From positions 2,825 through 66,824 of the forward strand of contig JAJZKU010000002.1 of assembly GCA_021850705.1 (NCBI GenBank): 64,000 bases of DNA, given 5' to 3'. Numbering within the stretch: the first letter of the stretch is position 1; each line of letters opens with the position of its first letter. Source of the stretch: Candidatus Micrarchaeota archaeon. GTDB lineage: Archaea > Micrarchaeota > Micrarchaeia > Micrarchaeales > CABMGC01. Both the position numbers and the translations under genes were made by a program. Positions 2,939-59,682 of the stretch are shown here, piece after piece. The notes beneath the pieces were generated by a model, which did not search any database, was not told where the DNA came from, and saw nothing but the letters and a program-made list of their open reading frames with translations.

Positions 2939-2942
2939 GATA

Positions 2943-3422: not shown

Positions 3423-3426
3423 GATA

Positions 3427-4340: not shown

Positions 4341-4348
4341 GAATATCA

Positions 4349-4483: not shown

Positions 4484-4509
4484 AAGTTCAAATGTCAATT
4501 TCATCAAAA

Positions 4510-23320: not shown

Positions 23321-23803
23321 TCATCTACGGTGTCCCATCCAGATACGGCCTCCGTCCCTATCTCCATAATATCTATATGGCATATCTCCATAGCCTCTGT
23401 CATAATCATAATCCGGTGCTCTATAACCATAGTTCAATATTCTTCCTCCATAGTCATAATCAGGTACGGTGTAACTATAGTTAGGTACTGTATAATCGTA
23501 GCTATACCCGTAACCAGGTATTGCTCCAGGATTATAATATGGTAAAACCCCTCCATAATTGTAATACCATCCTCCATTCGGATAGCTGTATGGGTTTGTC
23601 TCACTATAAACTATCTGCCCGTCAGTATATCCTCCAACCATGCCTACCTGTCCGTAAAAAGGCACACAGCCTGATACTGAAGCGGTAGCTGCCAATGCTG
23701 CTCCTACTACTGCCACCTTTCTGACAGCTTCTTTAAACGTACTTGATCTCGCTTTCTGCTCACCTACAGTTGTAGAATCAGTAACTCTTGCCATTGTTTT
23801 CAT
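23321..23803 (-). CDS. Tyr/Gly/Pro-rich secreted protein with lipobox-like signal anchor
   Basis: N-terminus ...TFKEAVRKVAVVGAALAATASVSGC, then low-complexity repeats (YSYDYTVPNYSYTVPDYDYGG...). Confidence 0.6.
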   Translation of the reverse strand: MKTMARVTDSTTVGEQKARSSTFKEAVRKVAVVGAALAATASVSGCVPFYGQVGMVGGYTDGQIVYSETNPYSYPNGGWYYNYGGVLPYYNPGAIPGYGYSYDYTVPNYSYTVPDYDYGGRILNYGYRAPDYDYDRGYGDMPYRYYGDRDGGRIWMGHRR

Positions 23804-23961
23804 TATACCACATACAACTTGTGGTTTTTACCATTGATAAAGATTTTTTGGTGAACGACAAACGACTAAATGGATATTTACAAGATGCAGGATCATCTGC
23901 CGACTGCTAACTGCAATAAATAAAAAGAAAGGGCAGATGCCTGGCACCTGCCCATAACTGT

Positions 23962-24498
23962 CTACTCTATCTTCCAGCTGCCATCAGGCTGTTGGCACGC
24001 AACTCCTTTTATCGTCTGTGCCTGCCCGCCTATGAAACCTGTCGTGACATAGCTTCTGCATACCTGCCCAGCTGCCTGTCCATTCTGCGGTACATACTGC
24101 TGTGTAGGGGTTACGCTATACCTGTTTCCATATGGGTTTGTCCAGACAGTCGTCCTGCCTACAGGGTTTTCAGTTATTGCATTATATGCATTTATCTGGT
24201 CCTGCCTGTCCATGCTCCTGCCTATGGAACCACCTATGTAAGCTCCTGCAAGCGTTCCTATTATAGTGGCTGCAGCCCTTCCTTCTCCCTGTCCTATCTG
24301 GCTTCCAATCACTCCTCCTAGGACTCCTCCAACTAACTGGCCATTCTGCTGGTATGTTGCGCATCCTGCTGCAGATACTGCAACAACCGCTCCTACCACT
24401 GCGCCTCTCACAGCGTTCTTGAATGTATCTACTCTCTTATTCCATTCCTTATGCGCTGCTCCTGTATTTCTCTCGCTGCTCTTTTGTTTTGTCTCCAT
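23962..24498 (-). CDS. glycine-zipper / 17-kDa-surface-antigen-like lipoprotein
   Basis: N-terminus ...TFKNAVRGAVVGAVVAVSAAGC (lipobox-like). Glycine zipper GGVLGGVIGSQIGQGEGRAAATIIGTLAGAYIGGSIG. The C-terminal domain contains conserved Cys residues. Confidence 0.7.
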   Translation of the reverse strand: METKQKSSERNTGAAHKEWNKRVDTFKNAVRGAVVGAVVAVSAAGCATYQQNGQLVGGVLGGVIGSQIGQGEGRAAATIIGTLAGAYIGGSIGRSMDRQDQINAYNAITENPVGRTTVWTNPYGNRYSVTPTQQYVPQNGQAAGQVCRSYVTTGFIGGQAQTIKGVACQQPDGSWKIE

Positions 24499-24550
24499 TA
24501 TATCACGTTAAAATAACTCCTAATAGATTAAAGCATATTCCTTAAATGGA

Positions 24551-25033
24551 CTACTCTTTATTATCTGAATTCAGGTAGCCTTTTATTGTACGTGTATACT
24601 TTACTGCGTTGTTATCCGTGTCAGGCTCTGCGCTTCTTCTCAATTCCTTCAGAAGCTCATTATGCTCTTCGTCAAGCTGTTCATATATCTCCTTTATCAT
24701 CGCACTATGATCGCTGTCAGTTACAGTAAATTCATCAGTAGATACAGTAACGGAGTATCTATACCAGCTATCAAAATGTCCCTCATAGTATTTTTTCATC
24801 AACTTTACTGCAACATCTATGCCTTCTACCCGTACACTGCCTGAATAGCTGCCTAACTGATCTGTCTTAGGATCAGGCGCATCGTACTGCCATGTGCTGA
24901 CCATCTTTGCAAGCTTAAATGCCTCTACGCCTGTCAAGGAATGCATTTCGCGATACTCTTCGCTTACCTCTCTTTTAACCGTGGCTATCTCCTCTTCTCT
25001 CAATGCTACTCTTCCTATTCTTTTTGTCTCCAT
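24551..25033 (-). CDS. orphan protein, tandem copy A (160 aa)
   Basis: Differs from copy B at two residues. Confidence 0.7.
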   Translation of the reverse strand: METKRIGRVALREEEIATVKREVSEEYREMHSLTGVEAFKLAKMVSTWQYDAPDPKTDQLGSYSGSVRVEGIDVAVKLMKKYYEGHFDSWYRYSVTVSTDEFTVTDSDHSAMIKEIYEQLDEEHNELLKELRRSAEPDTDNNAVKYTRTIKGYLNSDNKE

Positions 25034-25085
25034 TATATCACGTTAAAATAACTCCTAATAGATTAAAGCATATTCCTTAAATGGA

Positions 25086-25568
25086 CTACTCTTTATTATC
25101 TGAATTCAGATAGCCCTTTATTGTACGTGCATACTTTACTGCATTGTTATCCGTGTCAGGCTCTGCGCTTCTTCTCAATTCCTTCAGAAGCTCATTATGC
25201 TCTTCGTCAAGCTGTTCATATATCTCCTTTATCATCGCACTATGATCGCTGTCAGTTACAGTAAATTCATCAGTAGATACAGTAACGGAGTATCTATACC
25301 AGCTATCAAAATGTCCCTCATAGTATTTTTTCATCAACTTTACTGCAACATCTATGCCTTCTACCCGTACACTGCCTGAATAGCTGCCTAACTGATCTGT
25401 CTTAGGATCAGGCGCATCGTACTGCCATGTGCTGACCATCTTTGCAAGCTTAAATGCCTCTACGCCTGTCAAGGAATGCCTTTCGCGATACTCTTCGCTT
25501 ACCTCTCTTTTAACTGTGGCTATCTCCTCTTCTCTCAATGCTACTCTTCCTATTCTTTTTGTCTCCAT
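25086..25568 (-). CDS. orphan protein, tandem copy B (160 aa)
   Basis: Near-identical to copy A, 535 bp away. Confidence 0.7.
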   Translation of the reverse strand: METKRIGRVALREEEIATVKREVSEEYRERHSLTGVEAFKLAKMVSTWQYDAPDPKTDQLGSYSGSVRVEGIDVAVKLMKKYYEGHFDSWYRYSVTVSTDEFTVTDSDHSAMIKEIYEQLDEEHNELLKELRRSAEPDTDNNAVKYARTIKGYLNSDNKE

Positions 25569-25625
25569 TATATCACGTTCAAAAATCCTAACTAGATTAA
25601 AGCATATTAATTAAAAGGACTACTC

Positions 25626-26114
25626 TTAATTATCCGATTTCAGATAGCCCTTTATTGTACGTGCATACTTTACTGCATTGTTATCCGTGTCAGGCTCTAT
25701 GCCTCTTCTCAATTCCTTCAGAAGCGCATTATGCTCTGCGTCAAGCTGTTCATATAGCTCTCTTATCATCGGTCTGACATTATACCCTCTGTCAGTTCCA
25801 GTAAATTCATCAGTAGATACGGTAACGGAGTACATGTGCTCGATACCTCCAAACTCTCCAACACAGCGTTCTTTCATCAGCTTTACTGCAACATCTATGC
25901 CCTCTACGCATACATTGCCTGAATAGCTGCCTACCTGCTCTGCCTTCTTAGGATCAGGTCCATAGTACTGCCATGTGCTGACCATCTTTGCAAGCTCAAA
26001 GGCTTCTACGCCTGTCAAGGAATGCTTTCTGCGATACTCTTCGTTTACTCCTCTCTTCATTTCATTTATCTCATCTCCTCTCAATGCTACTCTTCCTATG
26101 CTCTTTGTTTCCAT
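25626..26114 (-). CDS. orphan protein, tandem copy C (diverged)
   Basis: The track ORF runs to 26135. The internal METKSIGRVALRGDEI... aligns with the METKRIGRVALREEEI start of copies A and B. Confidence 0.65.
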   Translation of the reverse strand: METKSIGRVALRGDEINEMKRGVNEEYRRKHSLTGVEAFELAKMVSTWQYYGPDPKKAEQVGSYSGNVCVEGIDVAVKLMKERCVGEFGGIEHMYSVTVSTDEFTGTDRGYNVRPMIRELYEQLDAEHNALLKELRRGIEPDTDNNAVKYARTIKGYLKSDN

Positions 26115-26135
26115 AATACCATCATTAAAAATCAA

Positions 26136-28823: not shown

Positions 28824-29999
28824 ATGGCAAATCATCTGAAGACCGGTGACAGCACTGTAGCTGTCAATATGCGCGCTCTCTTTTCATCATCGCCGCAGCA
28901 GGCTATACAGGAAGCTATGAGAAACGGAAATGGCAACGGACACAACGGGAAGCACAATGGCAACGGCACACGGGCAGAGGGCAAGCATCTGCTAGAAATG
29001 CTCCATACACTACAGGAAAGGGAGCGTACTGGTATTGAGGTAATAAGGGATATGGTGATACCGGTATACCGCACAGTAGTTGATCAGAGCAGGCCTCTAC
29101 AGTATGGCGTTCCATCCAAAGAGACTATAGATGCGATAGCACCGTATATGCCAAAAGAGGAACTGGAAAGAATAAGCGGGAAGATGCGATTTATAGCAGA
29201 TCCTGTAGTGCAGGACGTAGGATCTGTTCCTGACGGGGTAATAAAAAGAAAGGAACAGCCTCTTGATACGGGATTGGCAATGGTTACTGCTGTTGCTGCG
29301 AATACCGGACTTGCGTTCATAGAATCTGAGCCTGGACATAAGGAGGATCTTCAGAGGATAATATTGGGCGATCTTGAGCCGACCGGCCTATTGGCAAGGA
29401 AGCACTCACAGGTCATACCATTCAACGGCAGGAAGATAGAGGTAGGTACGTGGCAGAAGCTGAACTACATAGATCCTGCTGCAGTCGAACATCCTGAAGA
29501 GTCTATGCGTTTCTATGTTACGATATTCGAATCTACAAATCATGTCCTGATGAGGAAGAAGATCAGGAACGGTTCGCCCACGGCAGCCAAGGACATAACA
29601 GAGGATGTGGAGAAGGTTGTAGAAGGACTTGGAGTAAAGAACGGGGTAGCGGTAGTGTTCGGAATGCATACCACAATAGGTACTGCGCTGATGAAGCCTG
29701 AGAATGTTGACAATATGATACACCTTCTGAATACAGTTGCGCCAAATGACCTTGACCCTAACCTGCGCGTTCCATATCGGCACCACCTGAACGTTAATGA
29801 CGGAAACGGACATAGCCACATACAGAGCCTTCTTATGGGCACGACGGTTCTTGTGCCTGTGAAAGATGGAAAGGTAAACGTTGGTGAGCGCAGGATAATG
29901 GCCTTTGATTTCGACGACAATCAGGCGCCAAGAGAACGCGGATTCACCATAACTGTGATAAAGGATAATAGTGAAGAGCGCTCTCTGCTGAGGGAGTAG
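28824..29999 (+). CDS. YjbQ/UPF0047-family protein with long N-terminal extension containing a second, degenerate YjbQ-like segment
   Basis: C-terminal half: VAVVFGMHTTIGTALMKPE...NGHSHIQSLLMGTTVLVPVKDGKVNVG... Central part: VIPFNGRKIEVGTWQKLNYID (YjbQ GTWQ motif). Confidence 0.65.
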   Translation: MANHLKTGDSTVAVNMRALFSSSPQQAIQEAMRNGNGNGHNGKHNGNGTRAEGKHLLEMLHTLQERERTGIEVIRDMVIPVYRTVVDQSRPLQYGVPSKETIDAIAPYMPKEELERISGKMRFIADPVVQDVGSVPDGVIKRKEQPLDTGLAMVTAVAANTGLAFIESEPGHKEDLQRIILGDLEPTGLLARKHSQVIPFNGRKIEVGTWQKLNYIDPAAVEHPEESMRFYVTIFESTNHVLMRKKIRNGSPTAAKDITEDVEKVVEGLGVKNGVAVVFGMHTTIGTALMKPENVDNMIHLLNTVAPNDLDPNLRVPYRHHLNVNDGNGHSHIQSLLMGTTVLVPVKDGKVNVGERRIMAFDFDDNQAPRERGFTITVIKDNSEERSLLRE

Positions 30000-30012: not shown

Positions 30013-30978
30013 ATGAAAGAAAATCAAGCAGGCAGTACTTCAGAAGGGAAGAGAATCAGAATGCTGATGACTATGGGTAATGATGAGAAGGAGATAGGAA
30101 TAGTGGGATTAGGCAGTATGGGACTTAACATATCAAAGGTACTGCTAAGGAATGGATATGCTCTTACTGTGTATAACAGGAGTGTCGATAAATACGCGCA
30201 TTTTAATGACAGTGAAGAGGTGACGTGCACAAGCAGCATGGACGAATTCGCAGAAAAGCTCCAGCAGAAAGGAAAGGATGCGATCGTATGGATGATGCTG
30301 CCCGGAGGCGAACCTACAAACAGCATGCTCTCAGAGTTGTCGTCAATTCTGAACAAAGGAAGCGTAATAATAGACGGATCAAATTCCGATTCTGCAGACT
30401 CTGTATCAAACTACAATAAGCTGCGTGGTAAAGGCATAGAGTATCTTGACGTCGGTGTTGCAGGAGGCCCGGACGATGTTCTGAAAGGAGTGGCGATAAT
30501 GGCAGGCGGAGATAAGGAGACATTTGATAAAGTCAAGGAGATATTACAGGAAGTTGCAGGAGGAAGGGAGAGATGCGGATATGTCGGAGAGAGCGGAAGC
30601 GGTCACAGGCTAAAGGCAGCACACAATTCAATCTTCTATTCCATATTTCCAATATTTGCCGAGACGGCTGCGGCGGTAATCGAACAGAACAACGGAGACA
30701 AGGAGACGGCAGAAGAGTCCCTCAGGCTCCTCAGCATAGCTCCTCCAATAACAAAAGGTATACCTGAAGCCATACTAAACGCTTTCAGGAGCGGCGAACT
30801 CTTCAAAGAAGCTCCAAAAGTATCTGTATCTAAGATGGTAAGCTCATATGTGGACAGCGCCGAGAAGAAGGGCACACCACTTGATATAACCAAAGAGGTG
30901 CTGAAGAGCTACCCGGAAATGCGCGACAGCACCAAGAAAGTGTATTCAGGAGCCAAGAAGATACTGACAGGGCATTAG
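30013..30978 (+). CDS. 6-phosphogluconate dehydrogenase-like (short Gnd/YqeC-type) NAD(P)-binding dehydrogenase
   Basis: Rossmann motif IGIVGLGSMGLN. Also YLDVGVAGGPDDVLKGVAIMAGGD and GESGSGHRLKAAHNSI. The start may be one of the internal Met codons before the Rossmann motif. Confidence 0.7.
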   Translation: MKENQAGSTSEGKRIRMLMTMGNDEKEIGIVGLGSMGLNISKVLLRNGYALTVYNRSVDKYAHFNDSEEVTCTSSMDEFAEKLQQKGKDAIVWMMLPGGEPTNSMLSELSSILNKGSVIIDGSNSDSADSVSNYNKLRGKGIEYLDVGVAGGPDDVLKGVAIMAGGDKETFDKVKEILQEVAGGRERCGYVGESGSGHRLKAAHNSIFYSIFPIFAETAAAVIEQNNGDKETAEESLRLLSIAPPITKGIPEAILNAFRSGELFKEAPKVSVSKMVSSYVDSAEKKGTPLDITKEVLKSYPEMRDSTKKVYSGAKKILTGH

Positions 30979-32255
30979 CCGTTGGCAGCCTGCTGGCTTA
31001 GTTTTGCTTTCTTGGAGTAGTGCGACTCTACATATTTCTCAAGGTGCTTCTTGAATTCCTCAGTTGCAATATCAGCCTTTACTGCGGCAACCTGCTTGCC
31101 GTCTTCATATATGAGGCATGAAGGATTCTCTCCGCTGCCAGGGAGTGATATGCCTATCTGGGCCATTCTTGACTCTCCTGGTCCGTTTACAACGCAGCCC
31201 ATGACTGCAACCTTCATCTCCTCTACGCCGTCATATCCGGAGCTCTTCCATTCAGGCATGCGCTCCTGCAGATATCCTGTAAGATCCTCTGCCATCTCCT
31301 GGAAGGTTGTAGATGTCGTCCTTCCGCATCCCGGGCAGCTCGTTACCAAAGGCGAAAAGTGCCTTATGTCAAGCGACTGAAGAATCTGCCTGCATACTTT
31401 TACCTCTTCAGCCCTGCTCGATCCAGGAGTCGGCGTAAGCGATACTCTTATCGTGTCCCCTATTCCCTGTGTAAGTAGCAATGACAGTGCTGCCGATGAC
31501 GCTGCAACTCCCTTGCTCCCTATTCCTGCTTCAGTTAGCCCAAGATGAAGTGGCTGTTCTATCCTCGAGGAAAGCATCTCATATGCCTTTACCATCTTTG
31601 AAACTTCTGAAATCTTGGTGCTGACTATTATCTTGTTAGGCTCCATTCCATACTCTATGGCCTTATTGACCGACTGTACAGCACTCTCGACGACAGCTCC
31701 GACCATTATGTCATCTGCGCTCTTCTGCACAGCTGCCTTTGTATTGTCATCCATCATCTTAGTAAGCACTGTTGGGTCAAGCGACCCCCAGTTAACGCCT
31801 ATTCTTACAGGTTTGTCATGATCCTTTGCAACATCGAGTATCGCCTTGAAGTTATCGTCATGCTTCTCCCCGAAGCCTACATTCCCAGGGTTTATCCTGT
31901 ACTTGTCAAGAGCATCTGCACACGAAGGAACCTCCCTGAGCAGCTGATGCCCGTTGTAATGGAAGTCGCCTATCAACGGTATGTTGTAACCGAGATCGTC
32001 AAGCGCCTTCCTTATGTCTGTTACTGCGCGTGCCATCCTCAGATTCTGTACGGTGAACCTGACGAGCTCCGAACCTGCCTTATGCAGCTCTATTATCTGT
32101 GCCACTGTTGCCGTTACGTCTCCTGTATCGGTATTGGTCATGCTCTGTATCGCAACAGGGTGCTCTGACCCTATATACATGTCCCTTACTCTTACCTGCA
32201 AGCTCTTTCTCCTTGGTCTCCAGTCTGTATCTTTTTTCATGCTTATTGTTGCCAT
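30975..32255 (-). CDS. ispG: 4-hydroxy-3-methylbut-2-en-1-yl diphosphate synthase (MEP pathway)
   Basis: PVAIQSMTNTDTGDVTATVAQI, YRINPGNVG, PLHLGLTEAG, GIGDTIRVSL and CPGCGRT motifs align along the whole length with bacterial GcpE. Confidence 0.92.
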   Translation of the reverse strand: MATISMKKDTDWRPRRKSLQVRVRDMYIGSEHPVAIQSMTNTDTGDVTATVAQIIELHKAGSELVRFTVQNLRMARAVTDIRKALDDLGYNIPLIGDFHYNGHQLLREVPSCADALDKYRINPGNVGFGEKHDDNFKAILDVAKDHDKPVRIGVNWGSLDPTVLTKMMDDNTKAAVQKSADDIMVGAVVESAVQSVNKAIEYGMEPNKIIVSTKISEVSKMVKAYEMLSSRIEQPLHLGLTEAGIGSKGVAASSAALSLLLTQGIGDTIRVSLTPTPGSSRAEEVKVCRQILQSLDIRHFSPLVTSCPGCGRTTSTTFQEMAEDLTGYLQERMPEWKSSGYDGVEEMKVAVMGCVVNGPGESRMAQIGISLPGSGENPSCLIYEDGKQVAAVKADIATEEFKKHLEKYVESHYSKKAKLSQQAANG

Positions 32256-32259
32256 ATGC

Positions 32260-33207
32260 TCACATACTCCTTGAAAGAGGTCTGTTGAGTTCGTAAGGCA
32301 TGGTGAATTTCATATTCTCCTTTATCGCTTGCACGCTCTCTACCGTAGCGCCACGATCCTTGAAGTACTGTGCAAGCTCCTGGACAAGATATTCGGGAGC
32401 GCTTGCCCCTGCAGAAATCCCCACTGTCTTCTTGCCTTCAACCCACTCCTCCTTAAGCTCACTTACGCTGTCTATAAGATACGCATCGACTCCAAGCGCC
32501 TTTGCTGTATCAGCTAACCTGTTTGAGTTTGAAGAGTTCTTGCTGCCAAGAACAAATACAACATCACACCTGCTTGCAGCCTGTTTTATAGCTCCCTGCC
32601 TGTTTGTAGTTGCATAGCATATGTCAGAAGATGGCGGAGCCTTGAGCTGCGGGAATCTCTTCTTAAGTGCATCTATGACTCCCATACACTCGTCTACAGA
32701 GAGTGTAGTCTGTGTCAGATATGCAAGCTTCGAAGGATCCTTCACTTTTATATCCTTGACCTCTTCAGGCGTCTCAACTATCTGTGTTATGTCTGGTCTT
32801 ATCCCCATCACGCCCATAGCTTCAGGATGATTCCTGTGTCCTATGTACAATATCTCAAGGCCTTCCTTTGCAAACCTTCCTACTTCAATATGTATCTTCG
32901 ATACAAGAGGGCATGTGGCATCTATGGTAGAGAGCTTCCTCGCTCTTGCCTCCTCCCTTATCTTCGGCGCTATTCCGTGCGCAGAGAAGACGCAGATGCT
33001 CCCTTCAGGTATCTCAGATATCTCCTCTACGAATATCGCCCCTTTCTTACGCAGTGCATCGCACACCGTCTTGTTATGCACTATCTCGTGCTTCACATAT
33101 ATTGGTGCACCGAAGTTCGCAATCGCTTCTTCCACAGTATCTACTGCACGCTCCACTCCTGCACAGAATCCTCTTGGTTCTATCAAAATTACCTTTTCAA
33201 CACTCAT
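32260..33207 (-). CDS. ispH: 4-hydroxy-3-methylbut-2-enyl diphosphate reductase (MEP pathway)
   Basis: PRGFCAGVERAV, FSAHGIAP and DATCPLVSKIH motifs are typical LytB. Confidence 0.92.
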   Translation of the reverse strand: MSVEKVILIEPRGFCAGVERAVDTVEEAIANFGAPIYVKHEIVHNKTVCDALRKKGAIFVEEISEIPEGSICVFSAHGIAPKIREEARARKLSTIDATCPLVSKIHIEVGRFAKEGLEILYIGHRNHPEAMGVMGIRPDITQIVETPEEVKDIKVKDPSKLAYLTQTTLSVDECMGVIDALKKRFPQLKAPPSSDICYATTNRQGAIKQAASRCDVVFVLGSKNSSNSNRLADTAKALGVDAYLIDSVSELKEEWVEGKKTVGISAGASAPEYLVQELAQYFKDRGATVESVQAIKENMKFTMPYELNRPLSRSM

Positions 33208-33373
33208 CTTACTCCCTTATTATTTCTGGCTGTATTACGACTGATTATCCCTCACAGATTTATAACTATATGCGGCTACCGAATTATTTATAATAGAATA
33301 CCTGTTAATGGCATATGACGAAATATTATTAGACAGTACCGTGTACCTTCTGTAATTATCCGTGCGTCATCTT

Positions 33374-34630
33374 TTATTCATTAACTGCACTTTTGGAGAG
33401 AACCTCATTGTAATTATGCGTCACATACTTTCTTGCCCATGAGTCTGCCTCTATTATCTGTTCTAGTGTAGGCTCCTTATTGACAGAATGGGAATCTAGT
33501 GCGCTCTCTATCAGCTTTGGCATATCTGTAAACCTTATTCTCCCATTGCAGAAGAGCTCCACAGCTGTTTCGTCCGCACCATTCAGTACGGCAGGCGCGC
33601 TCCCGCCAAGCCTCCCTGCCCTGTATGCAAGGGCTATACTTGGGAAGCGCTCAATATCAGGCTCTTCAAAATCAAACCTCCCTATCTTTGAGAGCTCAAG
33701 CCTCTTCAGTCCCGTGTCTATCCTGTATGGATAGGTAAGCGCATACGCTATCGGATATCTCATATCGTGAGGTCCCTGCTGTACCTTTTGGCTTCCGTCT
33801 ATCAACTGGACGCCAGAATGGACTATACTCTGAGGATGCACTACTATCCTTACTTTATCAACATCAACCCCGAATATAGATGCTATCTCTATTACTTCCA
33901 TCCCCTTGTTCATGAGCGTTGCAGAACGTATCGTTATCAGCCTGCCCATGTCCCATGTAGGATGCTTCAAAGCCTGCTGCACAGTAGCCTTGTCAAGTTC
34001 ATCCTTCTTCCACTCTCGGAAAGGACCCCCTGAACAGGTGAGTATGAAATGGCCTATGTTGTTCTTTGCGCCTCTGTGCAGATGCCATATCGCACTGTGC
34101 CTGTCTTCCGAAGCATATATCTCAGGCTCCAATGTCTGCCATATCGCATTCGGTTCGCTGTCTATCGGCAGTATCTCTACATTATGCCTCTTTGCAGCTT
34201 CCGTTATCAGCCTGCCTGCAGTCAGGAAGGCCTCCTTGTTTGCTACCGGCACAGTATTTCCTGCTTCAATAGCTGCAAGTGTCGGTGCAAGTCCTGCAAA
34301 TCCTGCAGTCGCTATAACCACATATCCGTTGCTTATGCTCATGCAAAGATCCACCGCTTCCTGTTCCCCGGACAGTATAGTGGTCTTAATCCCCTTCCCG
34401 GAAAGCCGCATCCTGAGCTCCTTTGCTTTATCATCATTGACTACTACTGCTCTTTCAGGGCTGAACTCCAGAATCTGCTTCTCAAGAATGTCTATGTTGC
34501 TATTGCATGCCAATCCGTATACTTTGAAGTTTCGTTTGCCTGAGAGTCTTTTAACAACGTCAAGCGTCTGCGTCCCTATCGAACCGGTAGAACCATGTAT
34601 TACCAATGGTATCTCGTCATCCATAGCCAC
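33374..34630 (-). CDS. dxr: 1-deoxy-D-xylulose 5-phosphate reductoisomerase (MEP pathway)
   Basis: HGSTGSIGTQTLDV, ANKEAFLTAG, PIDSEPNAIWQ and LKHPTWDMG motifs. Confidence 0.92.
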   Translation of the reverse strand: MAMDDEIPLVIHGSTGSIGTQTLDVVKRLSGKRNFKVYGLACNSNIDILEKQILEFSPERAVVVNDDKAKELRMRLSGKGIKTTILSGEQEAVDLCMSISNGYVVIATAGFAGLAPTLAAIEAGNTVPVANKEAFLTAGRLITEAAKRHNVEILPIDSEPNAIWQTLEPEIYASEDRHSAIWHLHRGAKNNIGHFILTCSGGPFREWKKDELDKATVQQALKHPTWDMGRLITIRSATLMNKGMEVIEIASIFGVDVDKVRIVVHPQSIVHSGVQLIDGSQKVQQGPHDMRYPIAYALTYPYRIDTGLKRLELSKIGRFDFEEPDIERFPSIALAYRAGRLGGSAPAVLNGADETAVELFCNGRIRFTDMPKLIESALDSHSVNKEPTLEQIIEADSWARKYVTHNYNEVLSKSAVNE

Positions 34631-37778: not shown

Positions 37779-38363
37779 TCATACCGATGTCGAAGCTGTC
37801 GTATATACTGTAGTCGTAGATACAGATACTGTCTGAGAAGTTGTCCATAGCATAACGCGCAGCTCTGCAGGAACTCCATTATCCAAGATTACAGGAGTGT
37901 CTTGAACCACTACTGTAGTGGCATTATATGCCAGAGGATTTGGCCCTATGGTAAGGTTGTACAACTGCGGCGAGTAAATGACTATATAATAGTTATAGCT
38001 TACTCCAAGAAGCTGTTTTGATGCATCATAGTTGATTAGAGATAAGGCATAGAGCTTTGCTATCTTTGCTTCTGACAACCTGCCGCCTGTGCTGCTTGCA
38101 AGTCCTATGCTGGTATTTGTCCATGTTGACAGGTTTGCCGGATCTACTGAATAATACCAGTTGGAAGGAGTTCCTGTTGTCAACAGTCTGTTGGTAAGCT
38201 GCTGCATATCTGACTGCATATTACCATATGCATTCGAGTATGTTATAGAAAACTGCTGCGACACATTAAACCAGACATAGGTAAGAATAACCATGGTTAT
38301 TGCAAATATCACTATCGCAAAGATCATATCCATAGACCAGAATTGCAGCTTCATGTTCCCCAA
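37779..38363 (-). CDS. pilin-like protein (class III signal-like N-terminus)
   Basis: MKLQFWSMDMIFAIVIFAITMVILTYVWF is a short basic N-terminus plus a hydrophobic helix. Sequon-rich, with a Thr/Ser-rich C-terminus. A 13-nt overlap with the upstream giant gene suggests an operon. Confidence 0.6.
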   Translation of the reverse strand: MGNMKLQFWSMDMIFAIVIFAITMVILTYVWFNVSQQFSITYSNAYGNMQSDMQQLTNRLLTTGTPSNWYYSVDPANLSTWTNTSIGLASSTGGRLSEAKIAKLYALSLINYDASKQLLGVSYNYYIVIYSPQLYNLTIGPNPLAYNATTVVVQDTPVILDNGVPAELRVMLWTTSQTVSVSTTTVYTTASTSV

Positions 38364-41300
38364 CTCAAAGGTATCTGCTCAGTATATGTTATTGGCAACT
38401 GATTGTTATAAAGTTGATATACCTGCCCTGATGTAAGCGAGACGTTATAATACTCTATATTTGCTACGCTGCCTGCAAGATTAGGACCAACTATGATGGG
38501 GCTTGACGGTATTCCTGATGAAGAAGTGCCTTTAGCCAGAAGCACTCCATCGGCATAATAACTTACGTTCTTTCCATCAAACGTGCCCACTACATATGTC
38601 CACTTTCCAATAGGAAATGTTGTGACATTATTTGAAGTTGCGCTCCCTCCACCAACTGTAAATCCTTGTTTTGACGAAGTTCTGAAAAGCCCGTAATTCG
38701 AACTTCCAGGAGTGCCCAGATAAACTCCTGGTCCTGAAACCGGCTGGTCCAGATATACCCATGAAGCTATGCTGAAGTGCTGATAATTGTGATTATCGGC
38801 TACTATCGCATTACCCGAACCCAGTGAGGATACTCCATAGCTGTTCAGTGAAGGTATCGCAGAAGGATTTACTAAATATTCATAAGTTGTGGCATTCTCA
38901 GTACCGTTATTCCCATTACCGCTGTAATCATTTGCATTTCCATTAAGCGGCCACCATCCTACCAGCCCATCATTAGGTCTTGGCATGCCGTAGATTCCGG
39001 AATTATATAACATACTAACTTCCTTCTTAGATAACGGCACGCTGTATAACTGCACGTTTGCCATGGATCCATTTAATGCGTATGCCTCTCCAGAACTGTA
39101 TGAGTTGCCTATATCGAACGGTACTGATTGCGCAAGATTAAGATGCGCGCTTAGCATGGCGGAATCCGCTGTCGTATTGTCTAGATATACGGTTACCTGT
39201 CCTGTGCTTCCATTATACTCTGCAGTCACCATCTCCCAGGTATTTAGAGGAAAGGATGGCAATCCATTGCCGCCATATCCTGTCCATTTCACTATCTGTC
39301 CTCCAACAAGAAGGACATATTCCAAAGCAGCGGCATCGGTACACGCATAAAACTGGAATCCTGTGCTAGCACTGCTATCTCCAGCTACGCTTTCCCAGCC
39401 GGTACACGAATTAAGTTTAATCCATGCGGTGATTGTGAACGATCCTGTAGTTAATACGTCTGCATAATTCTTTATATTATTGACAGCCATGTAGCTGCCG
39501 TCTGCATGGCTGAAACCGGTTGCAAGAAAACGGGCAGTATTGTTGGGTACAGTCTGTTGCATGTTCTGGGAGACGAATCTGAAGCTGCCTGTTCCAAATC
39601 CGTTGTCATTATTACTGCTGTAGTCATTCGTATTCCCATTTAGTGGCCACCAGCCTACAAGTCCGCCAAGCAAAGGCATTCCGCTAATTCCCTCATGATA
39701 AAGAAGGGATATCTGGGATTCAGAAAGTGAAGCATCATAAACCTGTGCATTGGCAATAGCACCGTTGAAATACGTACCGACTGCCCCGGGAAGTATGGTC
39801 CCATATCCTATGTACAGCGGGCTCTTTGACACTACGAGATTGCTTCCTGTGCCTGAATTGGATCTGCATGCAGTATTGACACATATCGTTGCAGTTCCGT
39901 TCGAGTTAAGAGACCCTACAACAAAAGACCATTCGCCGATAGGGACCTTTACCCCAGAATAGATGGGCGTGGATGCCAGTACTCCGTCCATTACCGCATA
40001 TCCACTCGCATTTATTGATATTTCATACTGTAAGCCCTTTGCGATTATGCCTGCCCCGTTCCTGTTGTCTGCCGAGTATCTTTTAGGGTAAACCCATGCG
40101 GCAAGTGTGACAGAATTCGTTGGATCAAGCGAAGCAGAATCAGCGACGTTTACATAGCTATCATATCCTGTGAACTGTCCGACATAATTCACATTGTTCC
40201 AGTATCCGTTCTCCAGAGTACCAGGATCCAAACTGTTAGCAAAATTGAAGATAACATTGCCTTGGTTAGTATTAAGCGGCCACCAGCCGGAGAGATTCTT
40301 CGCAGTATATGCGTTTCCTTCAAAAGGAGTGACCTTGACATTGGCATATCCTGTATTGTTTGTCTGCATCAGGAAAGCTGTTGCAATACCGTTGTTATTT
40401 GTAAAATTAGAAGCAGACTGGCCGTTTCCTTCAAAGCTGCCAAGAGTTGATGAAAAGCCCACAAGGTCACCTTTTACAGGAGACAGGGTAACATTTGTCA
40501 CATTTGCATATATTTGTGCTACAGTAGGATAAACCACCTGATATGCTCTTCCATCGTTTCCATTTCCACTGTAATCATTTGCATTGCCATTCAGCGGCCA
40601 CCATGCAGATAGGTTATCCGACCTGACAGGCGCTCCGTTTATTCCACCATTCTGGAGCTGGGTTATCTGGTTAGAGTTAAGTGCAGTACTGTATATCTGC
40701 AGGTCAGATACCGAACCGCTGAACGGGGTACCGCTCTGGCAGGCTCCCTGTCCGCTATTGTAAGTATAATCGGTTGAACCTAAGACCAGGTTGTAGATAT
40801 AACTTGCAGAATCCAATGGCACTACTCCGTTTGCGATAGTCTTCCTCCCATTTACATAAAGCGCAAGCTTGTTTGTGGCATCGGAGTATGTCCAAGCTAC
40901 AAAGTACCACGTATTGCTCTTTATCGGAAGGAAGGCTTCTGATGAACCTCTGTTAATGTTCTGGAAACCACCATATATATTATTATTAGACACATATATC
41001 ATAGGGCCAAAGCAGTAGCTTCCCTGCTGGGATGTTCCATAATTGACTACTGCCATATGTCCTGAACTAGGCGGCAATTGTTTTACATATACCCATGCAG
41101 ACATTGTTATCGCGTTGTAGACAAACGGCTGCAAAAGGCTCGGAGAGTTTGCAACGTAAATGTAGCTGTCCTGCCCATTCATCTGTGCTACGTGCGTTAC
41201 TTTAGTGTATACATCAAGGCCTGAACCTTGTGCATAGGTGGTGTTGCACACATAATCTATGCATATATCTCCGTGAGAGTTCTGCAGATATATCAGACCG

Positions 41301-41698
41301 CTTGCAACAGGCATGTTGTATGTATGAATGGCATTAGGGGATTCGTACTGTTGCGAGGAAATTACTCTGGCTACAGGAGCATAAGCATAAGCGTACGAAA
41401 GCTTTCCAGTAGCATTATTATACACTATTACCGTCCCTGAGGAAGTGATAGATAGGTTATAATTCACAAGACCTGCGCCTGAAGGAAGGCTGACATTCTG
41501 AGCATACCCGTTGCCTAAAGATGATGCGGTATTTATATCCTGTGCTATTGTCTGCGCTATTACCTGCAGCTGCGCATAATCCTGCTGCTGCGACTGCTCA
41601 ACGCGCTGCGTCGCTACCAAGCCGAATATCAGAACGAATATTATCAGCACGAACGAGAATACTATTACATAATCTATTGAGAGTTGGGCCTTTACCAT
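38351..41698 (-). CDS. giant pilin-signal protein with multiple LamG (concanavalin A-like lectin) modules
   Basis: The likely start is MVKAQLSIDYVIVFSFVLIIFVLIF (track ORF extends to 41725). There are four WWPLN(G/T)N... inter-module linkers (e.g. LVGWWPLNGNANDYSGNGNNG), each preceded by a ..LQIYSTALNSNQI..-type LamG_3 C-terminal strand. Confidence 0.8.
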   Translation of the reverse strand: MVKAQLSIDYVIVFSFVLIIFVLIFGLVATQRVEQSQQQDYAQLQVIAQTIAQDINTASSLGNGYAQNVSLPSGAGLVNYNLSITSSGTVIVYNNATGKLSYAYAYAPVARVISSQQYESPNAIHTYNMPVASGLIYLQNSHGDICIDYVCNTTYAQGSGLDVYTKVTHVAQMNGQDSYIYVANSPSLLQPFVYNAITMSAWVYVKQLPPSSGHMAVVNYGTSQQGSYCFGPMIYVSNNNIYGGFQNINRGSSEAFLPIKSNTWYFVAWTYSDATNKLALYVNGRKTIANGVVPLDSASYIYNLVLGSTDYTYNSGQGACQSGTPFSGSVSDLQIYSTALNSNQITQLQNGGINGAPVRSDNLSAWWPLNGNANDYSGNGNDGRAYQVVYPTVAQIYANVTNVTLSPVKGDLVGFSSTLGSFEGNGQSASNFTNNNGIATAFLMQTNNTGYANVKVTPFEGNAYTAKNLSGWWPLNTNQGNVIFNFANSLDPGTLENGYWNNVNYVGQFTGYDSYVNVADSASLDPTNSVTLAAWVYPKRYSADNRNGAGIIAKGLQYEISINASGYAVMDGVLASTPIYSGVKVPIGEWSFVVGSLNSNGTATICVNTACRSNSGTGSNLVVSKSPLYIGYGTILPGAVGTYFNGAIANAQVYDASLSESQISLLYHEGISGMPLLGGLVGWWPLNGNTNDYSSNNDNGFGTGSFRFVSQNMQQTVPNNTARFLATGFSHADGSYMAVNNIKNYADVLTTGSFTITAWIKLNSCTGWESVAGDSSASTGFQFYACTDAAALEYVLLVGGQIVKWTGYGGNGLPSFPLNTWEMVTAEYNGSTGQVTVYLDNTTADSAMLSAHLNLAQSVPFDIGNSYSSGEAYALNGSMANVQLYSVPLSKKEVSMLYNSGIYGMPRPNDGLVGWWPLNGNANDYSGNGNNGTENATTYEYLVNPSAIPSLNSYGVSSLGSGNAIVADNHNYQHFSIASWVYLDQPVSGPGVYLGTPGSSNYGLFRTSSKQGFTVGGGSATSNNVTTFPIGKWTYVVGTFDGKNVSYYADGVLLAKGTSSSGIPSSPIIVGPNLAGSVANIEYYNVSLTSGQVYQLYNNQLPITYTEQIPLSWGT

Positions 41699-41862
41699 TG
41701 CAACGCAATTTATAGTAACCAACACAGCTTAAAAAAGATTTAGTTACGTCTCTTTCACAAAGCCTTACAGATACCTATTTAAACTCTAAAATAAATTAAT
41801 TATTCAATCGCCGCCAGCCGTAATATAATAAGGTTTGAATTTAACATAATATGTGTTTGTAA

Positions 41863-44091
41863 ATGAAGGGAATCGTCTTTACACTTGATGCTGTTTTTGC
41901 AATAATGATAGCCACGATTGCGATATCTATTTTATTATACTTCAATTATGCTCCTGTAAATCAATACAGCGTAGAGGCTTCTTCAGTCGGTTCCTTAGTA
42001 AGTATGTTATCAACTACGAATTTAGCGAATTTCAGCTCCCCACTTGCTGCCCAGATTAACAACCAGTATCAAGCCATAAATCAGGAATGGCCTGAATTCT
42101 ACCAGAGCGACAACGGTTCAAATAGCAACATTAACGGTCCGAATACTGACAGCGTTCTTATGGTATACAACACCTCTTCCCCATATATAAACGCCAACGG
42201 CATTGTTGCAGCAGGAGGAGCAATAAACTTCCTAAATTGTCAATGTGGAGTATATTATAATTCATATGGATATGTAGTACAGTCCCAAGGTCTTTATGCG
42301 GACAATCAAGGTTACTTAATCTATTACGATAACGCATACGTCTCTGCTAATAACATTAATGTGACTAATGGACAATGGTCATTTAAACTGCCCTCTTCTT
42401 CGAGTCAGATATCCTCACCAATATTGGGATATGATGGAATGATCATTGTCCCGGTTTATACTAGCGGAAATTCTGCAGAAACAGGAATAATAGGAATACA
42501 CGCGAATAACGGTACGGAAGCATGGATTCTGAACATAGGTGGCGAGGTTAACTCTATTGCCATAGCAAATGGCGATATGGCTGCTGCAGTTGGGAATACG
42601 GTTAAGGTATTTGGATACCAGGGAAGCGGTGTCCCTATAAGTATTTACAATAATACGTATGCATACTTGCCAACCAGAATAGTTTTCTACGACGGATCAT
42701 TTTATGTTGCAGATTCCTCATCGACCTCAGGCATATCTGTCTACAACAATGCGCTTTTTTCTCAGTCAACATCTAATTATGACTCTGGAGTCGGGAACGT
42801 GAGCTCAGGATCTTGGACAGTCCACATGCCTCAATATATAGGCAAATCTCTGATCGGTGGGCAGCCTGTTGCCACAAGTGGGAACCTGTATACATTATGG
42901 TCCAATAAATATTTAGTAGACCAAAATCCAGATAACGGTAAGATAAAATGGGCTATACAGATACCTTACTCCGGTGCATTATCCCCGCGAATGATACTTG
43001 CATACGGGGAACTTTATGTGGTTGTGGGAAGTAAGCTTATCTCATTCGGAAGCTGCCCAGGAATTTCATCAAGGTCCATACTCTCAAACTTAATCTCTTT
43101 CTATGCTAACGGGCTATCAAGCTGTGCAGATACGCTTCTAAGTACTGCAAATCCATCACAAAATGCTTCTGTGATGACATCATCTGGAGATACGACCGGC
43201 ATTACATATGAAAATAAAACTCTTATGTATCCATACGTGCTTAACTTTACAGGATATGATAGCTATGTTCGTATATCAAATAACAGTGCACTAAGTCCAG
43301 AAGCAGGCCCAAATGGGAAAATGTCCCTATGTGCATGGTATAACATAGTCTCTTTATCAGGTTATTATGGCCCTTTAATAAAAGGGAAGAATCCACCGAG
43401 CAATGGCAATGCATGGGAGTACACGCTTGATCAGAAAGGCTATACTGGTCCATCGTCCCATCCCTCATTTACTGTATGGAGTCCTTCCGGTGCGAATATA
43501 GCTTATGGGGAGGCCAATTCAATAACGTTTAATAGTATGTTAAATAACTGGTCATTCGCATGCTTTACTTATGATTATCCGGACCAGAAGGCATATTACT
43601 ACTTTAACGGAGTACAGTATAATGCAAGTATTACCAACGCATATGGTCCGGCTTCTGCAGGCAATGGGAGCATTGTCATAGGCGCCGGAGAGAACCCGTC
43701 AAATCCTTCCACCAACCCGGGATACTCTAAGGTGATGGTCTCAGATTTACAGATTTATAATGCGATACTATCCAAAAGCCAGATAAAGATGTTATATCAG
43801 CAGGGCATTACTGCCTCGCCGATACAATCTGACGGTCTTGTAGGCTGGTGGCCTCTCGGAGGGGATGCGAACGATTACAGCGGCAACGACCATACAGGAT
43901 TTATATCATATGCAATTCCAGCTTATGCAGGATTCATATCCCCCAGCTATCAAGACTCTCAAACTGTTAGTGTATCAAAAGTGATAGTCCTATCGCAATT
44001 CTCAGGAGAGACAAGAATTTACAACTCCTTTTATATAGTAAGTCCATCAGCTAGTTATGAATTCATAGGTGGGGTATATAGCTGGAGATAA
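41863..44091 (+). CDS. pilin-signal protein with PQQ-like beta-propeller repeats and a C-terminal LamG module
   Basis: MKGIVFTLDAVFAIMIATIAISILLY N-terminus. NGTEAWILNIGG and DNGKIKWAIQIP repeats resemble PQQ_2/BamB-like blades. Also SDLQIYNAILSKSQIKMLYQQG...LVGWWPLGGDANDYSGNDHTG. Confidence 0.75.
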   Translation: MKGIVFTLDAVFAIMIATIAISILLYFNYAPVNQYSVEASSVGSLVSMLSTTNLANFSSPLAAQINNQYQAINQEWPEFYQSDNGSNSNINGPNTDSVLMVYNTSSPYINANGIVAAGGAINFLNCQCGVYYNSYGYVVQSQGLYADNQGYLIYYDNAYVSANNINVTNGQWSFKLPSSSSQISSPILGYDGMIIVPVYTSGNSAETGIIGIHANNGTEAWILNIGGEVNSIAIANGDMAAAVGNTVKVFGYQGSGVPISIYNNTYAYLPTRIVFYDGSFYVADSSSTSGISVYNNALFSQSTSNYDSGVGNVSSGSWTVHMPQYIGKSLIGGQPVATSGNLYTLWSNKYLVDQNPDNGKIKWAIQIPYSGALSPRMILAYGELYVVVGSKLISFGSCPGISSRSILSNLISFYANGLSSCADTLLSTANPSQNASVMTSSGDTTGITYENKTLMYPYVLNFTGYDSYVRISNNSALSPEAGPNGKMSLCAWYNIVSLSGYYGPLIKGKNPPSNGNAWEYTLDQKGYTGPSSHPSFTVWSPSGANIAYGEANSITFNSMLNNWSFACFTYDYPDQKAYYYFNGVQYNASITNAYGPASAGNGSIVIGAGENPSNPSTNPGYSKVMVSDLQIYNAILSKSQIKMLYQQGITASPIQSDGLVGWWPLGGDANDYSGNDHTGFISYAIPAYAGFISPSYQDSQTVSVSKVIVLSQFSGETRIYNSFYIVSPSASYEFIGGVYSWR

Positions 44092-44113
44092 TGTTCTTTA
44101 TGGATGATTGTTT

Positions 44114-56801: not shown

Positions 56802-56914
56802 TCTTGGTAATTATACTATACTTGGTTTCTTCAGTTCCTTTTAATGGAACCTCTACTATGAGGTTTCTGGGAATGTAGGAATTATAGACTGATAGATATT
56901 ATACTTAGGTGAAT

Positions 56915-59160: not shown

Positions 59161-59682
59161 ATGGAGATAACGAAGAGCCACTTCCTTACTGATACTAATC
59201 AGGTATTCATATCGACAAGAAAGGTGATGGCACAGGCTGCACAGATAGCAGTTCCAGAAGGCTACAGGCAGGCTACGCTGAAAGAGGTCGCATTTAGATA
59301 CAAACATGACGAGGAATTCAGAGCTACGCTCTCAAAGTGCTGTGCATGGGTCGATAAAAGAGGTCTGGATACAGATGACTATCACCAGGTGCATAATGAC
59401 GGAACTATGACAAAGGTGGATGCAGATACATACTTAACATTGCCAGCTGGCAGCAGGGCCTTCCTCAGGCAAGGCGGAATGTATGTAACTGCTACGTGCA
59501 ACACTGACGCTGATGAAGGAAGACTGCTTGTCGATGCCATACGAGACGGTGCCGAACTTGCGAATGTGGCTTATGTTAGGAATCCGTTCCATCATAAATT
59601 TAACAGAATCTACCACGATGCAAGTAAATTCAAGAGATATATGCGTGGAATTGATCCTGCTGCAAGGTCATCTGATATCTGA
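59161..59682 (+). CDS. orphan 'LPxxR' family protein, member 4
   Basis: VFISTRKVMAQAAQIAVPEGYRQATLKEVAFRY and YLTLPAGSRAFLRQGG. Confidence 0.6.
   Translation: MEITKSHFLTDTNQVFISTRKVMAQAAQIAVPEGYRQATLKEVAFRYKHDEEFRATLSKCCAWVDKRGLDTDDYHQVHNDGTMTKVDADTYLTLPAGSRAFLRQGGMYVTATCNTDADEGRLLVDAIRDGAELANVAYVRNPFHHKFNRIYHDASKFKRYMRGIDPAARSSDI

Follow-up and report, generated by a model that had tools for sequence, protein, structure and literature searches.

How do three genes of the bacterial-type MEP pathway come to sit on an archaeal contig, and are they likely to work there? The question is posed by a 64,000-nucleotide stretch of DNA from a Candidatus Micrarchaeota archaeon (the window), which carries the following genes in close succession:

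33374-34630, minus strand: dxr, 418 aa (listed start GTG, with an in-frame ATG 2 codons further downstream)
32260-33207, minus strand: ispH/lytB (HMBPP reductase), 315 aa
30975-32255, minus strand: ispG/gcpE (HMBPP synthase) of the Thermus type, 426 aa

The original prediction described full-length, co-directional dxr, ispH and ispG genes with clear motifs and, indeed, three minus-strand open reading frames fill exactly that span, each with profile matches above cutoff. Dxr contains three Pfam domains (PF02670, PF08436 and PF13288; E 1e-31 to 5e-40) and scores 398 bits against the NCBIfam model TIGR00243 (cutoff 316), that is at the equivalog level. IspH matches Pfam LYTB (9.3e-93) and NCBIfam TIGR00216 (ispH_lytB; 331 bits, cutoff 188), and IspG matches Pfam GcpE (4.6e-112) and the NCBIfam models ispG_gcpE (371 bits, cutoff 280) and NF001540 (434 bits, cutoff 345). 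By these scores, the assignment of the predicted proteins to the Dxr, IspH and IspG families lies far beyond chance. We consider it highly probable, judging from sequence, that the Dxr, IspH and IspG encoded in this segment are functional enzymes of a Micrarchaeales-type archaeon (Candidatus Micrarchaeota, DPANN), of ancient and mosaic bacterial descent, a phenomenon already published for the Micrarchaeales.

The stop codon of ispH and the ATG of ispG are separated by the predicted 4 nt (read at 32256-32259), and dxr and ispH by 166 nt. A TATA-like element, TTAATATATA, lies ~30 nt upstream of the listed GTG of dxr and ~35 nt upstream of the in-frame ATG, and the 166-nt gap 5' of ispH holds TATA-like boxes and a GGGAG motif. 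dxr may hence be transcribed as one unit and ispH-ispG as a tightly coupled pair, with an A/T-rich TATA-like element preceding each putative unit.

Dxr converts DXP to MEP by NADPH reduction and rearrangement, and IspG and IspH are [4Fe-4S] enzymes that take MEcPP via HMBPP to IPP/DMAPP. By the established enzymology of their families, the window's proteins would catalyze these same steps, and the IPP/DMAPP products would feed archaeal lipid and polyprenol synthesis, beside the mevalonate route reported for the order. The closest solved structure for Dxr is E. coli Dxr (3e-86); in the alignment with it, GSTGSIG (the NADPH motif), DSE, HPxWxMG, SATxxNKGxE and HPQS are all retained, and the class I characters (metal ligands D, E and E; substrate-loop residues) are present. 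The His that follows DSE is replaced by a Pro that is invariant throughout the archaeal clade. For IspH, the closest structure is E. coli IspH (3zgl, 4e-103), with which the three cluster cysteines and the His/Glu/Thr/Ser-Ser-Asn/Ser substrate residues align. IspG aligns over its full length with T. thermophilus GcpE (4s38, 8e-143), comprising a TIM-barrel and a C-terminal [4Fe-4S] domain whose CxxC...C...E ligands are retained (SCPGCGRT and GCVVNGPGE). The dN/dS values are 0.06-0.11 for dxr, 0.04-0.09 for ispH and 0.03-0.045 for ispG. By these comparisons, all three genes are under strong purifying selection and their catalytic residues are intact; the conserved residues and the dN/dS of 0.03-0.11 indirectly support the prediction that the enzymes are active.

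What of the rest of the pathway? Only three of the seven MEP steps had been seen in the window, and tblastn with E. coli and three archaeal seed sets likewise finds no Dxs, IspD, IspE or IspF in the 64 kb; in the close relatives, too, the 10 kb on either side of the cluster contain none of the four. Clusters of sister lineages (more distant Micrarchaeaceae) do include ispD and ispE, and a search seeded with Micrarchaeaceae IspD returned only three archaeal clusters at ≥48% identity, none of them from window-type genomes. Dxs, IspD, IspE and IspF would have to be encoded in another part of the genome, or their steps carried out by other proteins. Two genes of the opposite strand adjoin the cluster:

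30013-30978, plus strand: 6-phosphogluconate-dehydrogenase-like (6PGDH-like) NAD(P)-binding oxidoreductase, 321 aa, convergent with ispG (the stop codons overlap by 4 nt)
28824-29999, plus strand: long YjbQ/UPF0047 protein, 391 aa, ending 13 nt upstream of the 6PGDH-like gene

The 6PGDH-like protein matches Pfam NAD_binding_2 (1.8e-36), its best NCBIfam matches are short 6PGDH models that all fall below cutoff, and its dN/dS is 0.13. It adjoins ispG in the window and in the related loci L001-5, L010, L011 and L014; in L092 and L093 it is found no more than two genes away from ispH. In the long YjbQ, a degenerate half resembling YjbQa is fused to one resembling YjbQb, with an N-terminal extension. 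Residues 257-377 match Pfam UPF0047 (PF01894; 1.2e-24, 87 bits, cutoff 27); HMMs built from relatives' separate YjbQa/YjbQb pairs match residues 146-187 weakly (i-E 2e-4) and residues 256-365 (i-E 3e-20); and nine PDB chains of the family, all uncharacterised proteins, match at E 2e-10 to 1.5e-3.

Upon comparison of the loci, we noticed that a YjbQ pair or fusion lies ≤3 kb from ispH/ispG in 11 of 15 distinct Micrarchaeota-type loci, often with the 6PGDH-like gene. Three different arrangements occur: YjbQ sits between ispE and ispH, 4 nt before ispH, in L009; it sits 3 nt before ispG in L092; and it is fused and convergent in the window and L093. YjbQ is missing from all 68 bacterial dxr loci and from both archaeal loci with a canonical ispF (L094 and L176), and in the archaeal type B clusters dxr, ispD, ispE, ispH and ispG are accompanied by two YjbQ genes but by no ispF. 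By gene neighborhood, the YjbQ duplicate or fusion is a specific and recurrent partner of ispH/ispG, and it is the only fresh lead here.

One reading of this partnership, which we rate as unlikely, is that the MEP route is rewired in Micrarchaeales: the canonical IspF, and perhaps Dxs, would be absent, and the tandem or fused YjbQ would be a dedicated pathway component that supplies the missing step. The most economical guess is that YjbQ replaces IspF in the cyclisation of CDP-ME2P to MEcPP; in a weaker version, it would assist the Fe-S enzymes IspG and IspH as an accessory factor. The 6PGDH-like enzyme could supply NADPH/reductant or a pentose-phosphate precursor. The distribution just described is in line with this reading, as are the purifying selection on the long YjbQ (dN/dS 0.045-0.155) and the literature on UPF0047, which describes only promiscuous activities (a thiamin-phosphate-synthase activity and suppression of a pdxB deletion), no physiological function and, as far as we found, no link to isoprenoids. 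Yet the Micrarchaeales pathway has been called 'complete' (PMC12892359), a survey of 4,400 bacterial genomes found IspF to be kept by essentially all MEP-using species (PMC10663253), four Micrarchaeota-type loci lack both YjbQ and ispF in their vicinity, and the conservation of a neighborhood inside one phylum could partly reflect shared ancestry. Moreover, because the loci were inspected within ±10 kb of each gene, ispF and dxs may lie elsewhere. Sequence and profile comparison do not place YjbQ in the IspF family: the YjbQa/b and IspF (YgbB, PF02542) profiles have no homology (hhalign probability 0.07%, E 0.72), and Pfam finds only UPF0047. Any IspF-like role would be an analogous replacement. 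Should the linkage be functional, the role of a family of unknown function could be put to a concrete test, and the finding would bear on isoprenoid-precursor synthesis in host-associated, reduced-genome archaea. Either version of the rewired route, if true, would give the widespread UPF0047 family its first physiological role, and the IspF version would be the first known exception to the reported IspF invariance among users of the pathway.

The visibility of only three steps could also mean that the pathway is broken and that Dxr, IspG and IspH are relics, decaying or re-purposed for substrates of another kind, for example intermediates taken from a host. Host dependence is common in Micrarchaeota, and the reported presence of a mevalonate pathway in the order adds to this picture. 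The low dN/dS values and the complete retention of catalytic residues argue against decay, and IspG, at 77-98% identity, is the locus's most conserved protein across the phylum. The known hosts are archaea that are not known to contain MEP intermediates, so that salvage would have no obvious source. We therefore regard relic genes as improbable, and the preferred reading remains that of three functional enzymes.

From where did these enzymes come? Their nearest non-archaeal relatives are all bacterial, at no more than ~50-60% identity, and belong to Chloroflexota or Clostridia for Dxr, to Thermus-type, Deltaproteobacteria and soil taxa for IspG, and to a mix of Actinobacteria, Lentisphaera and Burkholderiaceae for IspH. 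Against the archaeal full-cluster locus L176, IspH and IspG are 67% and 69% identical, compared with 41% for Dxr, 33% for IspD and 28% for IspE. L092, L093 and L175 have the pair ispH-ispG but no window-type dxr, and L176 combines the pair with another dxr; the pair comprises ~80 clusters, versus 19 for window-type dxr and only 3 for window-type ispD. Judged from these relationships, the genes descend from bacterial genes through ancient, mosaic transfer, ispH and ispG being an old pair common to other Micrarchaeota-like archaea. dxr (with ispD and ispE in sister lineages) forms a separate archaeal clade, nearest to Chloroflexota/Dehalococcoidia, that arrived separately, from a probably Chloroflexota-like source; this donor assignment is tentative because the tree is unrooted and the bacterial sampling biased.

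The contiguity, common direction and bacterial type of the three genes might instead suggest that this organism recently received a complete bacterial dxr-ispH-ispG operon in one step. This is very improbable: the 68 bacterial dxr loci examined show uppS-(cdsA)-dxr-(rseP)-ispG and never the order dxr-ispH-ispG, their IspG proteins are mostly 34-38% identical to the window's, the nearest bacteria differ for each gene, ispH-ispG is separable from the window-type dxr, and the clades are deep and their composition ameliorated. Thus, of the original prediction that the genes were acquired from bacteria, the bacterial descent stands, with the genes native in the archaeon, but the uptake of one bacterial cluster by this genome is not supported. 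Rather than a transferred operon, the archaeal 'cluster' is an archaeal assembly of genes with different histories.

The cluster had been described as embedded among typical archaeal genes, and the contig bears this out:

1171-5713: ribosomal proteins L19e, L32e, S4e, L18/L5e and S5
12815-13921: Topo VI-A
13923-15908: LonB
56909-58186: aEF-1alpha
59668-60624: deoxyhypusine synthase

The gene order around the cluster (Laminin_G_3 giant proteins, DUF4382, dxr-ispH-ispG, 6PGDH-like, long YjbQ, prephenate dehydratase) is conserved in GCA_027333995.1 and GCA_027342585.1 (NCBI), ERZ27236945 (ENA), SRR7268657 (Logan) and 3300024473 (JGI). In GC and tetranucleotide content, which the original prediction had proposed as a check for a chimeric contig, the segment matches the rest of the window and gives no sign of a chimera: the GC of the three genes (0.47-0.49) is similar to that of the ribosomal proteins, LonB and EF-1alpha, and the tetranucleotide correlation (r = 0.81) falls at the 21st percentile among windows of the same size. 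In codon usage, the three genes lie at a distance of 0.11-0.14, where the window averages 0.16 ± 0.04. That a 3.7-kb bacterial fragment was misassembled into the archaeal contig, for which only the segment's GC, the window's highest (mean 0.44), might speak, is refuted by the conserved synteny and has next to no probability left, since both junctions are found again in five or more independent assemblies that differ in sample and pipeline (Dxr identity 78-93%), the segment does not stand out from the window in codon usage or tetranucleotide content, and the best bacterial identities are only ~50% (Dxr), 54% (IspH) and 62% (IspG). dxr, ispH and ispG are native to the archaeal chromosome, with synteny conserved in related genomes.

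How far does the trait extend? Window-type Dxr occurs in 12 GTDB species titled Candidatus Micrarchaeota or Micrarchaeaceae, at 56-93% identity (58% for L009/L018, from the MAG DRTY-7_201709_bins_20). In an unrooted neighbor-joining tree of 85 sequences, whose bacterial sampling is biased by the search patterns, the archaeal Dxr clade is monophyletic with 100% support (100/100) and a Chloroflexota group lies nearest. The IspG clade comprises ~80 clusters (at 90% identity) in Micrarchaeota-like archaea, several of them named Candidatus Mic..., at 69-98% identity. By these clades and the composition, which is fully ameliorated, the trait is old and lineage-wide. The original prediction had inferred a horizontal acquisition from bacteria, to be considered unremarkable if phylogenies revealed a broad, vertically inherited archaeal clade; with 12 species in the Dxr clade and ~80 clusters for IspG, such a clade is what we find, and a remarkable acquisition by this genome is not supported. 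The phenomenon is also already published.

Bacterial-type MEP genes in Micrarchaeota are already known, and the window is one more instance of an anciently acquired, lineage-wide trait; the main finding matters little in itself, such genes being documented in DPANN archaea including Micrarchaeales. Reports of them from DPANN archaea date from 2018-2021, and a report on the Micrarchaeales themselves from 2025 (PMC12892359, Natl Sci Rev 2025). The latter study describes Micrarchaeales, Norongarragalinales and Zaosheniarchaeales as carrying a bacterial MEP pathway gained by horizontal transfer after the orders diversified, and treats it as complete at the order level. Its systems belong to the same phylum and comprise the same genes as the window's; the gene order, the mosaic of origins that sets dxr apart from ispH/ispG, and the neighboring YjbQ and 6PGDH-like genes are absent from its account. 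The MAG that holds L009/L018 bears a name of the type given to MAGs in that study. Co-located bacterial-type MEP genes, attributed to horizontal transfer out of several bacterial groups, were reported from Woesearchaeota and other DPANN archaea (PMC8204110, PMC8421398 and PMC6107057). Like the window, these clusters and our loci L094 and L176 hold bacterial-type genes, with IspG 59% (L094) and 69% (L176) identical to the window's. Unlike the window, they hold the full set of seven genes (with dxs, and with ispF or a fused ispDF) and lack YjbQ; they share just 41-43% identity with the window in Dxr and, in IspH, just 26% for L094, against 67% for L176. The bacterial uppS-cdsA-dxr-rseP-ispG neighborhood (Chloroflexota and others) encodes Dxr proteins 41-47% identical to the window's, Chloroflexota/Dehalococcoidia being nearest in the tree, and a cis-prenyltransferase gene lies near the archaeal type B clusters as in this uppS neighborhood. 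It differs from the window in its gene order, in having no adjacent ispH or YjbQ, and in the low identity of its IspG given above. Lastly, the C-terminal half of the 391-aa neighbor is a clear member of the YjbQ/UPF0047 family (TIGR00149; PDB 1xbf, 1vmh, 1ve0, 1vph and 2p6c), and compared with the known UPF0047 proteins, the archaeal YjbQ is duplicated (YjbQa and YjbQb) or fused, and linked to ispH/ispG.

The three co-directional open reading frames that the original prediction read as dxr, ispH (lytB) and ispG (gcpE) lie exactly at the positions it gave, all on the minus strand, and Pfam and NCBIfam assign them unambiguously. We judged the NCBIfam TIGR equivalog models against their curated cutoffs. 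The MEP genes and the two neighboring genes considered here are:

28824-29999, plus strand: long YjbQ/UPF0047 protein, 391 aa (Pfam 1.2e-24, residues 257-377)
30013-30978, plus strand: divergent 6PGDH-like oxidoreductase, 13 nt after long YjbQ, its stop codon overlapping that of ispG
30975-32255, minus strand: ispG, 426 aa (Pfam GcpE 4.6e-112; TIGR equivalog above cutoff)
32260-33207, minus strand: ispH, 315 aa (Pfam LYTB 9.3e-93; TIGR equivalog above cutoff)
33374-34630, minus strand: dxr, 418 aa (three Pfam Dxr domains; TIGR equivalog above cutoff)

Only 4 nt separate ispH from ispG, and 166 nt separate dxr from ispH. IspH matches the E. coli IspH structure (4e-103) and retains all three cluster cysteines together with the His, Glu, Thr, Ser-Ser-Asn and Ser substrate residues, and IspG matches the Thermus thermophilus GcpE structure end-to-end (8e-143) with its CxxC...C...E ligands in place. 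Dxr matches the E. coli Dxr structure (3e-86) and keeps the GSTGSIG, DSE, HPxWxMG, SATxxNKGxE and HPQS motifs. The sole clade-wide difference is P160, a proline where E. coli Dxr has a histidine after DSE; every one of the 14 archaeal-clade sequences in the alignment shares it. The window Dxr also has a longer loop ahead of its GGPF motif. Pairwise dN/dS against three relatives is low throughout (dxr, 0.06-0.11; ispH, 0.04-0.09; ispG, 0.03-0.045).

The surrounding genes are typically archaeal, as first described: the window encodes ribosomal proteins L19e, L32e, S4e, L18/L5e and S5, Topo VI subunit A, LonB, aEF-1alpha, deoxyhypusine synthase and a thermopsin-like protease. The window Dxr has its nearest relatives (78-93% identity) on contigs of five assemblies made independently of one another (two MAGs at NCBI and one each from ENA, Logan and a JGI metagenome), and all five share one order, namely giant Laminin_G_3 proteins, DUF4382, dxr-ispH-ispG, the convergent 6PGDH-like gene, long YjbQ and prephenate dehydratase. 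The composition of the three genes also fits the window: their codon-usage distance from its remainder is 0.11-0.14, under the window mean of 0.16 +/- 0.04; their GC content (0.47-0.49) is akin to what the genes for ribosomal proteins, LonB and EF-1alpha show; and by tetranucleotide correlation (0.81) the segment ranks at the 21st percentile among windows of its own size. Flanks recurring in at least five assemblies, together with these composition checks, rule out a chimeric contig misassembled from a bacterial genome. With conserved synteny, fitting composition and low dN/dS, dxr, ispH and ispG are resident genes and are predicted to be functional.

Several other features of the window caught our attention. 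Three very large open reading frames (38351-41725, minus strand, 1124 aa; 41863-44091, plus strand, 742 aa; 44108-47341, plus strand, 1077 aa) lie beyond dxr; two of them carry repeated Laminin_G_3/ConA-like lectin domains, and the three are conserved beside the MEP cluster in close relatives. These large proteins are probably surface or attachment proteins. On the minus strand at 23321-26135, five small open reading frames of 160-178 aa stand in a row, two of them exactly 160 aa and back to back (24551-25033 and 25086-25568) and one with glycine-zipper membrane domains; the row is probably a tandem paralog family. Two adjacent paralogous DUF7847 membrane proteins (16305-17132 and 17236-18069, both minus strand) are the lowest-GC genes in the window (0.37-0.40).

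How widespread are these genes? Scanning the archaeal-clade Dxr alignment against one genome per GTDB species recovered Dxr of 56-93% identity in 12 species whose titles read Candidatus Micrarchaeota or Micrarchaeaceae archaeon; below this range, identity drops sharply to 47% or less, in bacteria, mainly Dehalococcoidia. An 85-sequence neighbor-joining tree, unrooted and with a bacterial sample skewed by the search patterns, groups the 27 archaeal Dxr sequences as monophyletic in every one of 100 bootstraps and places a group of 13 Chloroflexota sequences nearest to them. The IspG clade is much larger, with about 80 clusters (69-98% identity), some of which bear the name Candidatus Mic..., followed by a tier at 57-62% that includes other DPANN (named 'archaeon' or Candidatus Dia...) and Deltaproteobacteria. 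A metagenome scan with the IspG alignment, dominated by two general patterns, RINPGNVG and KPVRIGVN, returned soil sequences only (53-58% identity) and no Micrarchaeota loci. The Dxr and IspG clades reveal a broad, vertically inherited archaeal lineage of MEP genes, the very case that the original prediction said would make the genes unremarkable, and the rarity implied at the outset does not hold.

This distribution is in line with published work. PMC12892359 (Natl Sci Rev 2025) reports a bacterial MEP pathway in Norongarragalinales, Zaosheniarchaeales and Micrarchaeales, with most MEP genes except dxs gained horizontally after those orders diversified, and the mevalonate pathway in the same three orders; the 'complete' pathway that it describes may be valid at the level of the order. 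MEP genes have also been found in a few DPANN archaea (PMC6107057) and in Woesearchaeota (PMC8421398; PMC8204110). The bacterial-type MEP genes here are an ancient Micrarchaeota trait of mosaic origin that runs through the whole lineage and has been published before.

Of the proposed horizontal acquisition from bacteria, bacterial descent stands, and gene-by-gene identities point to a mosaic. All 68 bacterial dxr loci follow the order uppS-(cdsA)-dxr-(rseP)-ispG, none has dxr-ispH-ispG, and their IspG proteins are mostly only 34-38% identical to that of the window. The nearest named non-archaeal IspH proteins (about 50-54% identity) belong to Actinobacteria, Lentisphaera and Burkholderiaceae. 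Among related loci from other assemblies, the archaeal locus L176 (3641-11227) holds a full canonical cluster (ispE, ispH / dxr, ispD, ispF, dxs, ispG) in which IspH and IspG fall in the window's clade (67% and 69% identity), whereas Dxr (41%), IspD (33%) and IspE (28%), compared with the Micrarchaeales versions, fall outside it. In a second full canonical archaeal cluster, L094 (1-11272, named Candidatus Dia...), IspG is 59% and IspH only 26% identical. These differences show that ispH and ispG are an old archaeal pair, that the window-type dxr and the ispD and ispE of sister lineages arrived separately, and thus that the MEP 'cluster' was put together within archaea. A Chloroflexota-like source for the separately acquired genes is tentative, because the tree is unrooted and bacterial sampling biased.

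The remaining steps, Dxs, IspD, IspE and IspF, were not detected in the 64-kb window, as originally noted, or within 10 kb of the cluster in close relatives: tblastn with seeds from E. coli, L009 (a relative with 58% Dxr identity), L094 and L176 gave no match. Pfam scans of most window open reading frames of at least 150 aa, antisense overlaps aside, likewise found no MEP genes beyond dxr, ispH and ispG. The Micrarchaeota loci show three architectures:

Type A (the window plus three or more other relatives at species level): dxr-ispH-ispG followed by the convergent 6PGDH-like gene and long YjbQ
Type B (L006, L009, L021): dxr-ispD; ispE on the opposite strand; YjbQa, YjbQb, ispH-ispG; a cis-prenyltransferase a few kb on
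Type B variant (L017, L019): as type B without ispD and ispE
Type C (L007, L008, L016): dxr-ispH-ispG alone

Three ispG-clade loci (L092, on a 1.05-Mb contig, L093 and L175) contain ispH and ispG with no dxr within 10 kb. With type B IspD as the seed, only three archaeal clusters were recovered that shared at least 48% identity.

The association of YjbQ and the 6PGDH-like gene with ispH and ispG is a new lead. HMMs made from YjbQa and YjbQb, which are separate genes in type B loci, match different halves of the 391-aa window protein: the degenerate YjbQa type matches residues 146-187 (i-E 2e-4) and YjbQb matches residues 256-365 (i-E 3e-20). This shows it to be a YjbQa/YjbQb fusion; its dN/dS of 0.045-0.155 indicates purifying selection. 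Of 15 distinct Micrarchaeota-type loci, 11 have a YjbQ pair or fusion no more than 3 kb from ispH/ispG. It takes three arrangements, and in two the linkage is clearly operonic, with 4 nt between YjbQ and the following ispH in L009 and 3 nt between YjbQ and the following ispG in L092. None of the 68 bacterial dxr loci has it, nor does either of the two archaeal ispF-bearing clusters (L094, L176). The 6PGDH-like oxidoreductase is also a recurrent neighbor of ispH/ispG in Micrarchaeota (L001-L021, L092, L093). Functional coupling of YjbQ to IspG/IspH is plausible. No physiological function has been described for the YjbQ family, whose only recorded properties are a promiscuous thiamin-phosphate-synthase activity and, in multicopy, the ability to suppress a pdxB deletion, and our literature search found neither a YjbQ-isoprenoid link nor an IspF-less MEP pathway. 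That YjbQ replaces IspF we consider improbable, since ispF may simply sit elsewhere in these genomes; essentially all MEP-using species in a bacterial survey keep IspF (PMC10663253). YjbQ is not a divergent IspF homolog (hhalign probability 0.07%).

Other genes recur near archaeal MEP loci. Three type B loci (L006:6518-7459, L009:55-993, L021:840-1742) have, a few genes upstream of dxr, an aldo-keto reductase with about 30% identity to E. coli YajO, whose annotation is alternative DXP synthase; this low identity, the several genes separating the reductase from dxr and its absence from the window count against a YajO-like route to DXP. NUDIX hydrolase genes appear at L001:8342-8806, L007:7049-7615 and L094:5081-5443, the last between ispD and ispF, and none adjoins the window cluster. 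In type B loci, a UPPS-type cis-prenyltransferase lies 1.5-3 kb downstream of ispG (L006:19177-19875, L009:12352-13059, L017:7581-8267, L019:7168-7866). Its proximity hints that MEP products feed polyprenol synthesis, and the arrangement echoes the linkage of uppS to dxr in bacteria.
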